The notes beneath the pieces were generated by a model. It made no database searches and was not told the origin of the DNA. It was given only the letters and a program-made list of their open reading frames with translations. Below are positions 4,056 to 63,750 of a stretch of 64,000 bases of DNA, in pieces. The stretch is from the NCBI GenBank assembly GCA_964426555.1, contig CAYRQJ010000005.1:5901-69900 (forward strand), written 5' to 3'. The position numbers were made by a program, and so were the translations under genes. Each line of letters opens with the position of its first letter. Position 1 is the first letter of the stretch. The stretch is from an uncultured Candidatus Saccharibacteria bacterium. Lineage in GTDB: Bacteria; Patescibacteriota; Minisyncoccia; Phycocordibacterales; UBA9973.

Positions 4056-4067
4056 TAATTCATTATA

Positions 4068-4094
4068 AAAGCCCCCGCATGCGGGGGCTTTTAT
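4068..4094 (+). terminator. Intrinsic terminator (20-nt perfect palindrome GCCCCCGCATGCGGGGGC + T-run)
   Basis: 4071-4090 is a perfect palindrome followed by TTTT. Confidence 0.8.
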
Positions 4095-4095
4095 A

Positions 4096-4611
4096 ATGCA
4101 TAAATATGCAGTACAATATGTATATATGGATCAAGCAATAGATAATGAAAAACAAGTTCTTTATTCTTTTACTACAAAAGAACATACTTATTATGAAAGA
4201 AGTATAGATTTTTATTGGGCCGTTGGAATAATTGGTGCAGTCTTGGCAACACTGGCTTTTATCTTTAAAGATGCATTGTTTGGAATTTTGATTATTATTG
4301 GATTTTTCCTGTATGGTTATTCTTCTTACAAAAGACCAAAAGATGTAGACGTTATAGTGACTAATAAAGATATAACAATAGGGGATGATGTGTTTAATAT
4401 TGCAAAAATTTCTGCTTATAGAATTTTAGACATTGGCAACGAAAAAGATGTAGTTTTTTTAATTAAAAGATCTTATCAACCACGAGTATCGGTAACACTG
4501 CCAGAAGGAATTGCAGACTCATTAAAAAATGCGTTAAATCAAATCTTAGAAGAAGATACTACTATTGTGCCGCATGTTGGACGCAGGTTCATGGCACGAT
4601 TTAAGATATAA
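4096..4611 (+). CDS. Hypothetical membrane protein (2 TM)
   Basis: Long ORF with hydrophobic helices. No recognisable domain. Confidence 0.45.
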   Translation: MHKYAVQYVYMDQAIDNEKQVLYSFTTKEHTYYERSIDFYWAVGIIGAVLATLAFIFKDALFGILIIIGFFLYGYSSYKRPKDVDVIVTNKDITIGDDVFNIAKISAYRILDIGNEKDVVFLIKRSYQPRVSVTLPEGIADSLKNALNQILEEDTTIVPHVGRRFMARFKI

Positions 4612-4879: not shown

Positions 4880-4933
4880 GTTTATATAGTTGAATACATA
4901 TTATAGCATATTTAGGTGTAAAGTCAAGGTATA

Positions 4934-4964
4934 CAAAAAAGGCTACATAATGTAGCCTTTTTTG
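4934..4964. terminator. Bidirectional hairpin terminator (A-run, GGCTACA-TAA-TGTAGCC, T-run)
   Basis: Stem at 4941-4957, flanked by A6 upstream and T6 downstream. Confidence 0.6.
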
Positions 4965-5053
4965 TATTTCGTCGTGAATCTTACAGATTCTGTACACCTT
5001 TCATATCGTACTCACTAAGTTCCGTGCGATATACTCAAGGTCAGCACAACGTA

Positions 5054-5990: not shown

Positions 5991-7070
5991 ATGGCACACT
6001 CGAAACTTTTAAGATTTTTTCCTGTTCCACAATATATTGTGATGCCGTCTTTTGGTTTGGAAATTTCTGAGAGAACAGTAAAATATTTAGAAGTAAAAGA
6101 TAGTTACTTGGGCTTAACTGTTGGTAATTATGGGTTAGAACGTATCCCCGAAGGTGCTGTAGTAAAAGGTGTAGTTGTTGACCCATCTAAACTTGTTCCA
6201 GTTTTGGCTAATATTAAAAAAACTAAAGGCGTAAATGCTGTGAGATTATCAATTCCTGAAGAACAGGTTTATACTTTTCAAATTGATATTGAATATATTC
6301 CTGGTATGGAATTGCGTGACGCAATACTATTAAATTTAGAAGGTTACATTCCTGTTTCAGCAAGTGAGGTAGAATTTGATTATGATATTATTTCTCAAAT
6401 TGGTAATAAGATAAAAATCCAAGTTGCTGCAGCCGAGAGAAATGCAATAGAAAGTTATATAAATGCATGTAATATGGCTGGCATAGAAGTATTATCTTGC
6501 GAATATGAATGCCAAGCATTAGCCAGAGCAATAACAAAACCTAAAGAAAAATCAGTAATTTATATTATAGATATTGGGAGAGCATCAACTACGTTGTCAG
6601 TAGTGCAAGATGGAGTTGTTGTTTCTTCAAACACAATAGCTCGTGGCGGAGAAGAAGCTACAACTGCAGTTTCTGAAAAATTTGGAATTGACCGTATTGA
6701 TGCTGAAATTTTAAAACACAAAATTGGCATGAATGGTAAAGACGAATACAAAGAATTACCAGAAATTTTAAAAGCGTCGTATGCGCCACTTTTTGAAGAA
6801 ATAATTAGTCAGTACAATGCTTGGCTTTCTTATATAAGAGAGAAGTCAAATATTTATAGACCAATTGAATCTGTGCAAATATTTGGAACTGAAGCATTAA
6901 CTCCTGGAATTATTGATCTTTTTCAAGCTACATTTCATAAACCAGTTTATATGGCGAATGTTTGGACAAGAATTGAAGCAGTTAGTACATTTGTCCCTAA
7001 AATTCATTTTAATGATTCGTTAGTTTATGGTACAGCAATTGGACTAGCTTTAGGGGCTTTTGAAGTATAA
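5991..7070 (+). CDS. Type IV pilus assembly ATPase-fold protein PilM-like
   Basis: Actin-like fold signature (FGLEIS...). Followed by PilN-like and PilO-like genes. The ORF-track TTG start at 5982 is replaced by the ATG at 5991; an alternative ATG at 6043 is possible. Confidence 0.6.
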   Translation: MAHSKLLRFFPVPQYIVMPSFGLEISERTVKYLEVKDSYLGLTVGNYGLERIPEGAVVKGVVVDPSKLVPVLANIKKTKGVNAVRLSIPEEQVYTFQIDIEYIPGMELRDAILLNLEGYIPVSASEVEFDYDIISQIGNKIKIQVAAAERNAIESYINACNMAGIEVLSCEYECQALARAITKPKEKSVIYIIDIGRASTTLSVVQDGVVVSSNTIARGGEEATTAVSEKFGIDRIDAEILKHKIGMNGKDEYKELPEILKASYAPLFEEIISQYNAWLSYIREKSNIYRPIESVQIFGTEALTPGIIDLFQATFHKPVYMANVWTRIEAVSTFVPKIHFNDSLVYGTAIGLALGAFEV

Positions 7071-7621: not shown

Positions 7622-8288
7622 AAAAAATATAAAAATTCATTTGGGGTTATCTATACTATTGTTTCTTTTTGTATGTGGAGCAATATTTTTTAGTTTAAAA
7701 ATTTTAAATAGTGCTACTTCAAAAATCTATGTTTTAAATAAAACAATTTTAAATATTAAATCTGAATCAGAGAATGAAACCAAAATAAAATCAGAACTTG
7801 AGAATTATGCAGCTGCTATTGAGTCTGTGGATAATCATATTATTACGAAAGAAAATGATGTTCCTAAGATTATTGAAAACATTGAATCTTTAGGGAATAA
7901 ACTTGGGTTAGATATTAAAATTGACAATATTTCGATTCCTGGAGCTCAGCCAGGCAAGGTGGGTGGTGTAGCCACAACTGATGATATTGAAAATTCAAAA
8001 AAGAATTCAATTACTGGAGTTGTAAACAGTATCCCTAAAAATCCATCAAAACCAATCATTGTAGATATGACAACCAATGGGTCTTTTGATAAATTATTTA
8101 AATTTATGTATTTAATTGAAAATAATGATTACATTATGAATATTCAAAGCTACAAAATAGAACAAGTATATGTAAATAGTTCATCTGATGGTCAAACTTA
8201 TTCTCCTGTTTTACAAAACATCGATCCAAACAAAAAAATGACTTGGCTTTTAAATATTAAATTAGTTATCAATACAGCAATAAAATAA
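7602..8288 (+). CDS. PilO-like pilus assembly protein (tentative)
   Basis: N-terminal TM plus coiled-coil region, and position after pilN. Confidence 0.4.
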   Translation: MMLFMNKKNIKIHLGLSILLFLFVCGAIFFSLKILNSATSKIYVLNKTILNIKSESENETKIKSELENYAAAIESVDNHIITKENDVPKIIENIESLGNKLGLDIKIDNISIPGAQPGKVGGVATTDDIENSKKNSITGVVNSIPKNPSKPIIVDMTTNGSFDKLFKFMYLIENNDYIMNIQSYKIEQVYVNSSSDGQTYSPVLQNIDPNKKMTWLLNIKLVINTAIK

Positions 8289-18715: not shown

Positions 18716-18729
18716 TATTAAATTTATTC

Positions 18730-18758
18730 AAAAAATCCCTAGAAATAGGGATTTTTTG
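18730..18758 (+). terminator. Intrinsic terminator (ATCCCTA-GAA-ATAGGGAT + T-run)
   Basis: Stem at 18735-18752 followed by T5. Confidence 0.75.
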
Positions 18759-18797
18759 AATTTCGTAAAATTGGCTAATTTATGTTATATTTTAAGC

Positions 18798-25677: not shown

Positions 25678-25713
25678 TTTGTTTTAAAATAAAATAAAAT
25701 TATTTTTTTAGTA

Positions 25714-25747
25714 ACCCAAAAAGCTTCCTATAGGAAGCTTTTTGGGT
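25714..25747. terminator. Bidirectional terminator: 34-nt perfect palindrome ACCCAAAAAGCTTCCTATAGGAAGCTTTTTGGGT
   Basis: Perfect palindrome with embedded A-run and T-run. Confidence 0.7.
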
Positions 25748-25901
25748 TATGGTATTGACTACAGTAAATATAAATTTTCTAACCCCCAAAAACACCTCTT
25801 TTTGGGTTTTCCACTGTTTTTTTTCGGGCCAAATTTTGGTATTATGATAGTCCATGCAGGTAACTATGTCGCATGCATTATAATAATATATCAATTTATC
25901 C

Positions 25902-50464: not shown

Positions 50465-51169
50465 ATGGAAAAAAATAATAGCTTAGAAACTATGAAAAAA
50501 TGCGCAGCAATGGGGGATAAAATTTTTGCCCAAGTTTGTGTTCAGCTAAAAAAGCATGCTTTAAAAACAGAAATTGAATTAGCAGATTATATAAAAAATG
50601 AGATATATAAACTGGGGGCAAAAGAATCTTTCCCGGTAATTGTTACATCTGGTCCAAGAGCAGGGAATAATATTCATCCCACTCCGACTACTGCTGTAAT
50701 ACAGGGATTTGTGATTATAGATTTTGGTATAAAGCTGGGCGGGTATTGTAGCGACATGACCCGTACAGCATATGTTGGTAAGCCAATGAAAGATGAGATT
50801 GCAGTATATAATACCGTTTTAAGAGCCCAAATTGGCTCTACAAGCTACCTTAAGTCTGGTTTACCAGTATCTGCACCAGACGCATTTGTACGAGGGATTT
50901 TGGCTGAAAATAGGTATAAAGGCAGGGAACTGGGGCAATATTTTATTCATACATTAGGGCATGGAATATCTAAAAAAGTCCACGAATCTCCAAAGATTTA
51001 TTATAAATCAAAAGAAATTTTTAAAATGGGTAAAGTTGTCACATCCGAACCTGGGATATATATTCCTAAAACCTTGGGCATAAGAATAGAAGACATGTAT
51101 TTGATTACTGACGGAGAACCGCAACAAATTACCAAAAGTAAAAAAGAGTTATTAGTTTTTCATAAATAA
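50465..51169 (+). CDS. M24-family metallopeptidase (Xaa-Pro aminopeptidase-like catalytic domain)
   Basis: IIDFGIKLGGYCSDMTRT, HTLGHGIS, VHESP and SEPGIY metal ligands. TGcTATAGT promoter 6 nt upstream of the ATG. Confidence 0.7.
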   Translation: MEKNNSLETMKKCAAMGDKIFAQVCVQLKKHALKTEIELADYIKNEIYKLGAKESFPVIVTSGPRAGNNIHPTPTTAVIQGFVIIDFGIKLGGYCSDMTRTAYVGKPMKDEIAVYNTVLRAQIGSTSYLKSGLPVSAPDAFVRGILAENRYKGRELGQYFIHTLGHGISKKVHESPKIYYKSKEIFKMGKVVTSEPGIYIPKTLGIRIEDMYLITDGEPQQITKSKKELLVFHK

Positions 51170-51173
51170 AAAT

Positions 51174-51196
51174 CCCAGACGTCCAACGTCTGGGAG
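51174..51196. terminator. Palindromic hairpin (TCCCAGACG-TCCAA-CGTCTGGGA)
   Basis: 9-bp stem preceded by an A-run on the + strand. Confidence 0.5.
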
Positions 51197-51220
51197 TCGA
51201 AAAAGGGAAGTAGTATATAC

Positions 51221-51250
51221 TAAAAAAGCCTTAAAAATAAGGCTTTTTTA
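51221..51250. terminator. Bidirectional terminator (A6, AAGCCTTA-AAAAT-AAGGCTT, T6) between convergent M24 peptidase and efp
   Basis: Stem at 51227-51246. Confidence 0.7.
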
Positions 51251-51295
51251 GTAATTTTGTTTAAATATCCTTATAAAATAAGGCTAAATGGGGAA

Positions 51296-61407: not shown

Positions 61408-61461
61408 TGTTCATAGTTTAACCAACAAAGGTTAAAAAGTATCTTTCTTTAAAAAAGAAAC

Positions 61462-61490
61462 AAAAACACCCCGAAAGGGGTGTTTTTGTT
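61462..61490 (+). terminator. Intrinsic terminator (ACACCCC-GAAA-GGGGTGT + T-run)
   Basis: Stem at 61466-61483. Confidence 0.75.
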
Positions 61491-61517
61491 TTGGTTAATT
61501 TTTGCTATAATGACTGT

Positions 61518-62177
61518 ATGAAAAATCAAAAAATAAAAAATATAATTATATTATTAACAGTAATATTAGCAGGTTTTCTAATTTTTTCTTATTATTCGAA
61601 ACCAAAAGAATCCTTAAACAATAGTGAAAATACACAAAATCAAGAAGAAGTTACTACAATAGTTGATAAAAATAAAGATACTGGATCTGTTACCCAATCT
61701 TCTGATCTTGAACAAAAATTTAATGCGTCTATGGTTTCAGCTCGAAATGCTATGCTAAAAGCTGATTATTCTTCTGCAATCAAATATTACAATCAAGCTT
61801 TAGAATATAAACAAGATGATACTGCTTACGCTGGTTTGTTTACGGTATATTTAACACAAAAAAATTGGCAAAAAGCTTTTGATTCAGTTAATAAAGCTAT
61901 ATCAATTAGTCCTGTTTGGGGTGATTATTGGAAATGGAAAATATTAGTTATGAACGAAGGCCTGAAAGCAACCTTTACAGATCTAAAAAAAGTTTACGAA
62001 GAAGGGTATTTAAAAACTAAGACAGAAGAAAAAATTAATCTTGTTACTTATTTTGCTAGTATTGCTAGTTCAAAGAATCAAAAAGAATACGCAATTTCTT
62101 TATGGCAAAAAGCTATAGAATTATCTCCCGAAAATAAAGCTACTTATCAAGCAGAAATAGATAGATTAAATAAGTAA
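61518..62177 (+). CDS. Membrane-anchored TPR-repeat protein
   Basis: TPR-like AIKYYNQALEY...AYAGL...WQKAF repeats. TGcTATAAT at 61503-61511 plus a 6-nt spacer. The ORF track starts at 61491. Confidence 0.55.
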   Translation: MKNQKIKNIIILLTVILAGFLIFSYYSKPKESLNNSENTQNQEEVTTIVDKNKDTGSVTQSSDLEQKFNASMVSARNAMLKADYSSAIKYYNQALEYKQDDTAYAGLFTVYLTQKNWQKAFDSVNKAISISPVWGDYWKWKILVMNEGLKATFTDLKKVYEEGYLKTKTEEKINLVTYFASIASSKNQKEYAISLWQKAIELSPENKATYQAEIDRLNK

Positions 62178-62249: not shown

Positions 62250-62304
62250 CCCAATACTTATCCACATGTATAGGTCTTGCCTTAACATGTGGATAAGTAT
62301 TGGG
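62250..62304. repeat. 55-nt perfect palindrome containing a reverse-orientation REP-like unit (copy A)
   Basis: CCCAATACTTATCCACATGT-ATAGGTCTTGCCTTA-ACATGTGGATAAGTATTGGG. The 15-nt core is the reverse complement of the core in copies B and C. Confidence 0.8.
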
Positions 62305-62343
62305 TATTGCTAGTTTTGTTTATTTGTGTTATGGTAGCTTATT

Positions 62344-62850
62344 ATGAAATTACAAGAAATCAAGGCAAAATTATTAAATAAAGTTGATAGCAAAATAGCT
62401 TGGACTATTGTTGGGACATTAGCTATTGTTCTAATCGTTGTGGTACTAGTTTGTAACACAAAAACTAACAAAATTAGTCAAGATGTATTAGATGGTAATA
62501 CAGCAGACAAGACTACTGAATCTAAAGAAGACATTGTAAAGCCAGTTGCTACCACAAAGCCAGTAGTAAAAATGAGTTATGCAAATGCATTAAATATTTA
62601 TAAAGACCGTCGTATTCAATTAAATGACGCTTGTCAGGCTATTCCAAATACAATGACTTTTAAAAACGGTACTACTATAATGATAGATAATCGTTCAAAG
62701 ACAGCTCGTAAACTAAATATAAATGGCGCGTATACTGTGGGATCATACGACTACATAACAGTAAAATTAACTTCAAACACACTACCTAAAACAATTTTAA
62801 TTGACTGTGGAGCTAGTCAAAACGTAGCAACAATCCTGTTACAAAAGTAA
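62344..62850 (+). CDS. Hypothetical membrane-anchored protein, lying between REP-like copies A and B
   Basis: 168-aa ORF with an N-terminal TM helix. Confidence 0.4.
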   Translation: MKLQEIKAKLLNKVDSKIAWTIVGTLAIVLIVVVLVCNTKTNKISQDVLDGNTADKTTESKEDIVKPVATTKPVVKMSYANALNIYKDRRIQLNDACQAIPNTMTFKNGTTIMIDNRSKTARKLNINGAYTVGSYDYITVKLTSNTLPKTILIDCGASQNVATILLQK

Positions 62851-62885
62851 AATAATTTTTAACTTTTAAAAATAAAAATTCCTAC

Positions 62886-62918
62886 TTATCCACATGTTAA
62901 GGCAAGACCTATACATAT
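62886..62918 (+). repeat. REP-like unit copy B (TTATCCACATGT-TAAGGCAAGACCTAT-ACATAT)
   Basis: Direct match to copy C. Confidence 0.8.
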
Positions 62919-63021
62919 CTGTATATGTATATATCTCAAAAGAGCAGCTTTATTGGCTGCTCTTTTTGTTTATACTGAACACCGCTTATTTAGTCTTTAG
63001 GATGTGTTTTCCTAAACTAAG

Positions 63022-63750
63022 TTATCCACATGTTAAGGCAAGACCTATACATGATAAAATTATAATAGTTATGAGTACAAGAAAAGTTTCATTTGTTTTG
63101 GGTGAATATTATCATCTGTATAACAGGGGTAATAGTAAACAACTAATTTTTCTTGATGATTCTGATAAAAGACATTTTATAAATCTTCTTTATTTATCAA
63201 ATACAACAAAAAGAGTTGTGATTGATCGTGTATCTAAAAATATATATGATTTCGACAGGGAAGAATGTCTAGTTTCAATAGGTGCGTATTGTTTGATGCC
63301 GAATCATTTTCATATTTTAATTACCGAAAAAACAAATGGTGGAATAAGTAAATTTATGCAAAAGTTAACAACTGCTTATTCAATGTATTTTAATAAAAAA
63401 TATAATAGAACTGGGGCATTATTTGAAGGAAAATTTAAATCACAACACTTGAATAAAGATGAATACTTGAAATATGTCTTTTCTTATATACACCTAAATC
63501 CTTTAAAATTAATAGATAAAGATTGGAAAATAAATGGAATACAAGATAAAACAAAAGCTTTGAATTACTTAAACACGTATCAAGAAAGTAGTTATTTAGA
63601 CTACCTTGATATTAATCGCAAGCAAGGACTGATACTTGATAGAGGATTATTCCCAGAATATTTTCCAAATAAATATTCTTTCGAAATCGAAATATTTGAC
63701 TGGTTATCTTATAACGAAGATGTATAGGTCTTGCCTTAACATGTGGATAA
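63022..63750 (+). mobile_element. REPtron-like unit: IS200-like/RAYT Y1 transposase gene flanked by inverted REP-like hairpin repeats (copies C and D)
   Basis: Copy C at 63022-63054 (forward) and copy D at 63718-63750 (reverse) bracket the transposase CDS. The stop codon lies inside copy D. Confidence 0.7.
63071..63727 (+). CDS. REP-associated tyrosine transposase (RAYT)/IS200-like HuH Y1 transposase
   Basis: YHLYNRGN, HuH motif LMPNHFHILI, and catalytic-Tyr region YVFSYIHLNPLK. The ORF-track start at 62894 reads through repeat copies B and C, so the ATG at 63071 is preferred. Confidence 0.8.
   Translation: MSTRKVSFVLGEYYHLYNRGNSKQLIFLDDSDKRHFINLLYLSNTTKRVVIDRVSKNIYDFDREECLVSIGAYCLMPNHFHILITEKTNGGISKFMQKLTTAYSMYFNKKYNRTGALFEGKFKSQHLNKDEYLKYVFSYIHLNPLKLIDKDWKINGIQDKTKALNYLNTYQESSYLDYLDINRKQGLILDRGLFPEYFPNKYSFEIEIFDWLSYNEDV

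Follow-up and report, generated by a model that had tools for sequence, protein, structure and literature searches.

A RAYT-like Y1 HUH gene between inverted, covarying hairpins in Patescibacteria: a probable REPtron- or TIRtron-type module

REP-associated tyrosine transposases (RAYTs) and the repetitive extragenic palindromic (REP) sequences that accompany them are the textbook example of transposase domestication, the REPs being the non-autonomous partners. Most known cases come from Proteobacteria, with species-specific REPs. Near the right-hand end of a 64,000-nt stretch of Patescibacteria DNA (contig CAYRQJ010000005.1; the whole stretch is called the window below), a 218-aa open reading frame (ORF) with the look of such an enzyme lies between inverted copies of a short hairpin. 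Do gene and hairpin belong together and, if so, is the arrangement a RAYT system, an insertion sequence (IS), a regulated host gene or something else? Our analysis indicates that the locus is probably a module of the REPtron/TIRtron type, in which a RAYT-like Y1 HUH gene sits between its inverted cognate hairpins. The module would function like these systems without being a strict member of the REP/RAYT class, because it has no GTAG tag, shows no high abundance in the available sequence and falls below the RAYT equivalog cut-off. We found no paper on this family of the candidate phyla radiation (CPR) or on its hairpin tip in an incomplete search of the literature, and this gene-plus-hairpin module with its invariant tip seems not to have been described so far.

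A Y1 HUH protein and its family-wide hairpin

The ORF (63071-63727) contains the motifs YHLYNRGN, LMPNHFHILI and YVFSYIHLNP, on which a preliminary description of the locus had based its assignment to the RAYT and IS200-like enzymes. In profile searches it matched Pfam PF01797 (Y1_Tnp) at 44 bits against a cut-off of 23, and hit the NCBIfam RAYT equivalog NF047646 below threshold (46.8 bits, cut-off 80). When 21 homologues, with lengths of 216-229 aa, were aligned, the HUH motif H79-F80-H81 proved invariant, as are Y139-I-H-L-N143, which includes the catalytic-type tyrosine Y139, the SS motif S173-S174, NHFH and F95..Q97. P144 is at least 90% conserved, and a C-terminal tail of about 75 aa is conserved throughout. 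As a sequence-profile search of the PDB returned nothing at E <= 0.01 (only ISDra2 TnpA, at E ~0.8), we turned to a fold search. This identified E. coli TnpA-REP (4ER8) as the closest fold (Foldseek top match, E = 3.3e-4), with the TnpA proteins of IS608 and ISDra2 also matching. Taken together, motifs and predicted fold support the view that the ORF encodes a Y1 HUH enzyme of RAYT type (class 2, Y...NP).

The family to which this protein belongs is large. A homologue search (E <= 1e-5, 90%-identity clusters) yielded at least 7,957 clusters, the best 120 of which mostly measure 216-229 aa and share 60-73% identity with the query. Wherever a source was named among these best 120, it was given as Patescibacteria, Paceibacterota, Nomurabacteria or Minisyncoccia, and all 80 GTDB record titles refer to Patescibacteria/CPR.

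We then asked how far the hairpin travels with the gene. An 11-nt tip, AGG-TCTTG-CCT or its complement, placed in inverted orientation around the gene on otherwise unlike stems, was recognized first in two relatives (L002 and L005), and the tip-plus-gene pattern was subsequently extended to about 55 of the 80 GTDB species loci. When 66 evaluable loci were tallied using the tip AGG-YCTTG-CCT (either pyrimidine allowed as the first base of the loop), it was found on both sides of the gene in 57, on one side only in 4 and on neither side in 5; loci without it show other tips, for example TCGGA, TCCTT or TTA loops. The arrangement is a feature of the whole family and no peculiarity of this locus. 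The orientation of the two-sided pairs was F/R (YCTTG upstream and its complement downstream) in 40 cases, F/F in 12, R/F in 3 including the window, and R/R in 2, so that an inverted layout (43 loci) prevails over a direct one (14 loci). The suggestion, made when the locus was first described, that it may stand for a distinct REP/RAYT class outside the Proteobacteria is borne out.

Covariation analysis was performed on 125 distinct hairpins, picked by the 11-nt tip alone, over a helix of 10 pairs. This revealed paired bases in 89% of cells, compared with 62% after shuffling and 29-48% when the partner strand was slid, and a covariation score of 0.656, compared with 0.16 (shuffled) and at most 0.14 (slid), with all four Watson-Crick pair types occurring at stem positions 4-8. 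Since the tip is conserved while the lower stem undergoes compensatory substitutions, it is the folded stem-loop that is selected, rather than the duplex sequence. Likewise, because the layout is kept in distant relatives with compensatory stem changes, we regard the hairpins as a selected, cognate feature of the gene. On the YCTTG strand T.G is commoner than G.T, and the T/C switch at the first loop base retains the pair with G and leaves a CTT triloop, so that the YCTTG strand is probably the one that folds.

The position of the hairpins relative to the gene is equally regular. The centre of the upstream loop precedes the ATG by 35 nt in relatives (interquartile range (IQR) 34-36) and by 30 nt in the window. 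In 61 of the 66 loci a TAnnnT motif, often in the form TGnTATAAT, has its end 5-9 nt upstream of the ATG, and a Shine-Dalgarno sequence is not visible. The downstream loop centre falls 4 nt (IQR 3-14) past the stop, with the TAG of a ...TAGG... sequence often serving as the stop codon. Judged from the sequence, this looks like a promoter that would give a leaderless or near-leaderless mRNA, with the hairpin in its -35 region. The upstream hairpin would therefore act as DNA rather than as RNA and, given its place in the gene's own promoter, binding to it would probably cause repression, making it a likely operator for autoregulation.

Layout and turnover of the locus

In the window, the hairpin forms part of a 31-33 nt repeat unit (33-mer form TTATCCACATGTTAAGGCAAGACCTATACATGT). 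The features of the locus are as follows.

62250-62304, no strand: copy A palindrome, 55 nt, the long version of the hairpin, with the + strand loop TCTTG
62264-62296, minus strand: copy A unit, within the near-perfect palindrome 62250-62304
62344-62850, plus strand: gene for a 168-aa membrane-anchored protein between copies A and B, a resident neighbour outside the machinery
62886-62918, plus strand: copy B, + strand loop CAAGA, forming the outer left boundary of the stretch in which the sister genomes differ
62938-62966, plus strand: hairpin like an intrinsic terminator, with a T run, between copies B and C
63022-63054, plus strand: copy C, the promoter-proximal unit, with its tip AGGCAAGACCT at 63036-63046
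63061-63066, plus strand: TATAAT, a -10-like hexamer read from the sequence, just 5' of the ATG, no Shine-Dalgarno
63071-63727, plus strand: gene for the putative Y1 HUH endonuclease/transposase of RAYT type, 218 aa, between copies C and D
63718-63750, minus strand: copy D, + strand loop TCTTG, containing the stop codon; its outer half ACATGTGGATAAC is common to sister genomes

All four unit copies claimed in the preliminary description are present, with 0-1 mismatch to the 33-mer and no match in 100 shuffles, and a 19-nt core of the unit recovers the same four sites against 0.01 expected. Copies C and D are indeed inverted relative to each other around the 218-aa ORF, whose TAG stop codon (63725-63727) falls within copy D, and copies A and B are inverted in the same manner around the 168-aa gene. 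The arms are 100% complementary over 34 nt for A/B, 95% over 40 nt for C/D and 86% over 49 nt for B/D. A close relative (L001; protein 96% and DNA 94% identical) has copies B, C and D at matching positions. Two statements about folding required correction. The palindrome at 62250-62304 had been called perfect, but complementarity between its 26-nt arms is 92%; a T.T/A.A internal loop interrupts the stem, and the apical loop has 5 nt. Moreover, of the four units each said to fold as a hairpin, copy A is very stable as part of this palindrome (-24.5 kcal/mol, z = -11.5), whereas copies B, C and D, in which decay of the outer ACATGT arm to ACATAT, ACATGA or ACATCT has weakened the pairing, reach no more than -4.3 to -6.6 kcal/mol (z -1.4 to -2.5) on their own.

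Exact-sequence look-ups for the Y1 and the 168-aa proteins gave no record, the 168-aa protein has no match in Pfam or NCBIfam, and the window-specific repeat has no match in GTDB genomes or JGI metagenomes. A known RNA family was rejected as an identity for the repeat, since the matches in Rfam were far below threshold and fell on generic long-hairpin models, mostly microRNA precursors. The window also contains long perfect A/T-flanked intergenic hairpins with stems of 10-15 bp (for example 4061-4098, 4931-4967, 18726-18761, 25712-25749, 51218-51253 and 61458-61491); these resemble bidirectional intrinsic terminators and show no sequence relationship to the Y1 hairpin.

We compared the locus with two sister genomes, L208 and L209, which are syntenic with 52.9-64 kb of the window and 82-92% identical in the flanks. 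At the site between the 168-aa gene and the downstream gene, both carry a different Y1 paralogue of 219 aa, 34% identical to the window protein (L208:9721-10380, L209:8630-9289; Pfam Y1_Tnp 22.9 bits; Y motif YVNMNY). This gene is located behind a TATAAT-type leaderless promoter and is followed by the hairpin TCCCAGACGT-TGG-ACGTCTGGGA and then by ACATGTGGATAAC, a remnant of the window unit. Homology to the window stops at 62876 and restarts at 63739, implying that the exchanged segment extends from B through D (62877-63738). These observations suggest recurrent use of one landing site by Y1 genes.

Site A has changed as well: it is a long palindrome in the window, combines that stem in L208 with the tip ATCGGAC, and consists in L209 of a single unit in the opposite orientation, joined to another TTATCCACA box (a DnaA box; see below). 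Upstream of copy A, a TPR-repeat gene (61491-62177) is found in the window and in L208 and is missing in L209, where the hairpin unit follows the terminator of a gene for a large PG_binding_1 protein. The 168-aa gene occupies the matching position in both sister genomes, where copy B is absent, and is unlinked to Y1 in other lineages. We therefore read copies A and B as locally seeded copies and not as the ends of a cassette, and reject a gene cassette carrying the 168-aa gene between them. Inversion of a neighbouring gene between hairpins was likewise rejected, L002, L003 and L004 being identical and the apparent difference one of gene calling.

Across the wider family, the question of whether the locus is fixed or variable received a divided answer. 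Synteny is preserved in several clades, where Y1 is as conserved as the genes beside it or more so, but other Y1 genes that are 80-84% identical occupy unrelated contexts, and L208 and L209 differ from the window as just described. Eight GTDB genomes have two loci each, and among the 80 GTDB loci returned no same-genome pair of Y1 proteins reaches 72.6% identity, the lowest value in the list of best pairs.

Hairpins with the family tip cluster strongly around the gene. In 951 kb of protein-selected loci, we counted 108 of them, with 91 within 100 nt of Y1, 12 at 0.1-1 kb and 4 at 1-2.5 kb; beyond 2.5 kb, 515 kb of relatives' flanks held a single one. The nearby extra hairpins occupy the next intergenic region and so, like A and B, enclose one gene at a time; the genes so enclosed are unrelated to one another. 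REPIN-like inverted doublets flank the gene in five loci (L010, L014, L039, L064 and L065). A reverse search of metagenome contigs with the 15-mer CTAGGTCTTGCCTAG returned many long-stem hairpins on low-GC contigs; sufficient flanking sequence was available for 51, and 37 of these lack a Y1 gene within 1.2 kb. The CCGCTAGG stem family borders Y1 in six loci and stands by itself in at least 12 contexts with unrelated flanks, which amounts to REP-like dispersal in at least one lineage. Hairpins of this family, with stems of 18 and 13 bp, also enclose a decayed Y1 gene, detected as three tblastn fragments, at L168:4450-4990, a locus at which the hairpins have outlived the gene. In L130, L152, L170 and L190, solo members lie inside ORFs of 460-540 aa, and may represent in-frame intragenic insertions.

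Other hairpins appear to belong to other Y1 genes. A solo hairpin at 51173-51195 of the window, TCCCAGACGT-CCA-ACGTCTGGGA, directly follows a 234-aa ORF (50465-51169), which was considered as a Y1 gene and rejected. Its stem is identical to that of the hairpin after the divergent Y1 gene in L208 (10381-10403) and L209 (9290-9312), with the loop inverted, and it looks like a member of a second hairpin family, the window having no cognate gene for it. In addition, a Nomurabacteria genome (L005:6112-6798, minus strand) encodes a third Y1 subfamily, 228 aa long and 43% identical over the core, 3 kb from its main Y1 gene. The associated hairpin, AGATAGAG-CCTTAGA-CTCTATCT, is found at about 6119-6151, 6606-6646 and 6803-6842; one copy is intragenic, recalling the intragenic REPs of TnpAY1 subclass 2.4.

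Mobility, regulation or replication

In the model that we consider probable, single-stranded DNA, exposed at a replication fork or by cruciform extrusion, would allow the strand with the YCTTG loop to fold, a T.G or C-G pair closing the CTT triloop. The enzyme would read the invariant tip and, via Y139, cut and rejoin nearby DNA, as E. coli TnpA-REP and IS608 TnpA do. Hairpin units and hairpin-bounded segments would occasionally be copied or moved in this way, locally and more rarely elsewhere, and the whole gene module of ~0.75-0.87 kb might be relocated or exchanged, while enzyme bound at the -35 hairpin would probably repress its own gene. Applied to the window, C and D would be the gene's own pair, B the outer end of an inserted or exchanged segment, and copy A a satellite seeded in the next intergenic region.

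Several observations weigh against this model. The unit is confined to 1.5 kb of the window (62250-63750), with no copy in the other 62 kb, and the solo hairpins that suggest dispersal sit in metagenome contigs not assignable to gene-bearing genomes. The loop orientation relative to the gene varies, something that a strictly strand-specific mechanism must tolerate. No foot tag of the GTAG type was detected: among 211 distinct hairpins, no base exceeds 46% at any of the 8 nt on either side, and the flank of the window hairpin is TTATCC. The guide and cleavage logic of RAYT and IS200/IS605 systems is therefore not simply transferable, and binding, cleavage and the cleavage site are proposed here by analogy with those systems. 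Finally, the fixed promoter and stop-codon geometry is also compatible with a purely regulatory role.

That last point underlies the first alternative, in which full domestication has turned the gene into an immobile host gene and its hairpins are purely regulatory, one serving as a -35 operator and the other as a transcript end or terminator, without DNA mobility. The constant upstream spacing, the -10-like motif in nearly all loci, the stop codon within the downstream hairpin, the high conservation of the protein and the synteny of several clades, with Y1 at least as conserved as its neighbours, would all be expected on this view. It would leave unexplained, however, the extra hairpin copies around unrelated neighbour genes, the doublets, and the one stem family found solo in at least 12 unrelated contexts. 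Sister genomes vary in the presence, orientation and tip of the hairpin and in the resident Y1 paralogue, near-identical Y1 genes occur in differing contexts, and no T run follows the downstream hairpin. In light of these data, an entirely immobile locus appears unlikely.

A more far-reaching proposal is that of an ancient and distinct CPR hairpin/HUH system in which a single enzyme family would read a universal tip, AGG-YCTTG-CCT, and combine re-targeting of landing pads, bracketing of single neighbour genes and, in some lineages, coupling to DnaA boxes. Such a system might carry out site-specific rearrangement of single-stranded DNA or regulate adjacent host genes, and would not merely be a selfish generator of REPs. 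Landing-pad re-targeting, if it occurs, would explain why sister genomes have exchanged different Y1 paralogues at a single site; we nevertheless consider the proposal as a whole unlikely.

The locus could also be a conventional or IS200/IS605-type autonomous insertion sequence, with C/D or B/D as its terminal repeats. It is compact (~0.75-0.87 kb), its terminal inverted repeats measure 40-49 nt, and the segment 62877-63738 is the exact difference from L208 and L209. Moreover, 12 of the 66 loci have direct hairpins, as in IS200/IS605, some genomes have two copies, and L168 harbours the decayed hairpin-flanked one. Yet no target-site duplication is visible by eye at the C/D or B/D ends. The protein has the class 2 motif Y...NP rather than the Y...Q of IS200 (PMC6006769, Table 1), no two of the 80 GTDB loci that share a genome reach 72.6% protein identity, the inverted layout is the commonest, and hairpin copies far outnumber gene copies near the locus. 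An autonomous IS of this kind is therefore quite improbable.

The last alternative concerns DnaA. The preliminary description had pointed to a perfect DnaA box embedded in each repeat, and in this lineage the TTATCC tail of the unit, together with the ACA of the stem, does form one. Copy A, with its TTATCC/GGATAA tail on both sides, yields two of these 9-mers. There are five perfect TTATCCACA boxes in 62258-63750 and seven in the whole window (the others at 7826 and 57336), against 0.72 expected. In other places, boxes lie within 45 nt of hairpins seven times, compared with 0.68 expected from a whole-sequence background. Against an intergenic background, this excess shrinks to 7 vs 2.5 (p = 0.015), because the boxes are enriched in intergenic DNA in general, about 9-fold over coding DNA in 1.66 Mb of CPR loci (0.103 vs 0.012 per kb). 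This intergenic enrichment, in which the boxes often take the form TGTGGATAAC, may point to widespread DnaA-dependent regulation in Patescibacteria. L208 and L209 keep the boxes beside site A and at the right-hand end, with the hairpin tip missing there. The box in the unit is real here, but we treat it as a lineage-specific neighbour of the hairpin, possibly a pre-existing one, and its association with hairpins elsewhere is marginal. That the five boxes in 1.5 kb mark a replication origin or DnaA-regulated region, with the repeats as DnaA-box arrays and not transposase substrates, is very improbable despite the retained boxes in L208 and L209 and the whole-sequence excess, given that GC skew is positive over 1-52 kb and then near zero with no clear switch at the locus, that the part conserved across lineages is the tip and not the box, that the excess over the intergenic background is small, and that no DnaA-like C-terminal domain (domain-IV-like region) was detected in the Y1 protein.

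The family has three unusual properties: a single family-wide tip on covarying stems, a rigid geometry, and a low, strongly local copy number. The module provides a natural covariation data set for the reading of a DNA hairpin by a Y1 enzyme and a simple substrate for in vitro testing, as well as a handle on the genome dynamics of the small, gene-dense and mostly uncultivable Patescibacteria. Such loci will also mislead predictors of the replication origin oriC, through their DnaA boxes, and annotators of insertion sequences.

Comparison with known systems

REPtrons are known, for example, from E. coli K-12 (PDB 4ER8) and Pseudomonas (Nunvar 2010; Bertels & Rainey 2011; Ton-Hoang 2012; from PMC6006769, PMC5581495). 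Like them, the module consists of a gene between inverted short palindromic hairpins, with doublets and solo copies and, as far as the loci covered suggest, perhaps also a low gene copy number, divergent paralogues and partly vertical inheritance. The idea of REPs with a cognate RAYT therefore stands as far as hairpins flanking the gene are concerned, but not for the GTAG/GTGG tag at the hairpin foot, which the module lacks, nor for high copy number, which is not seen in available sequence. In the loci covered, its hairpin copies are few and concentrated within ~2 kb of the gene, whereas classical REPs number in the hundreds and are dispersed. Its conserved part is the tip, common to a class-to-phylum-level radiation, in contrast to the species-specific classical REPs. 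The protein also differs: at 218 aa it is longer, its C-terminal tail is conserved, and its score stays below the NCBIfam equivalog cut-off. The host, too, is different, being a member of the Patescibacteria.

In comparison with the IS200/IS605 elements (IS200, IS608 and ISDra2 TnpA), the module shares a likely recognition of subterminal hairpins and a very small one-gene format, and in the same 12 of 66 loci both hairpins lie on one strand. It differs from them in having mostly inverted hairpins, no tnpB partner, no near-identical copies among the sampled loci and no recognisable conserved target or guide tetranucleotide. The Y motif separates the two as well: according to the motif table for TnpAY1 classes in Quentin et al. 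2018 (Table 1, PMC6006769), class 2 (RAYT) has Y-x-x-x-N-P and IS200 has Y-x-x-x-Q.

By motifs alone, the protein is nearest to TnpAY1 subclass 2.1 (PMC6006769), which corresponds to RAYT group 1 of Bertels et al. 2017 (PMC5581495) and to the TIRYT proteins of Di Nocera et al. 2013 (PMC3733652). Subclass 2.1 is characterized by NH[YF]H, FQ/W[EQ], Y[IV]HLNP, an SS in the proximal tail and a length of ~238 aa (PMC6006769); the module proteins match these motifs with NHFH, F95..Q97, YIHLNP and the tail SS, and a length of ~220-240 aa is common to both. The C-terminal helix-turn-helix of the TIRYT proteins (Bac_DnaA_C/HTH_23/HTH_28-like) went undetected in the module proteins, with no Pfam match in the 21 aligned members even at E <= 10. 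The described terminal inverted repeats (TIRs) of TIRtrons share GGGGWSAS, which is absent from the window units by direct reading, no pattern search having been made. A further difference is that subclass 2.1 is reported without REPs or REP-like hairpins nearby (PMC6006769), whereas a covarying hairpin is the rule in the module. At the level of the whole element, the two nevertheless resemble one another in possessing terminal inverted repeats that are in some cases self-complementary and at most moderately repeated, and in showing signs of occasional horizontal movement or relocation.

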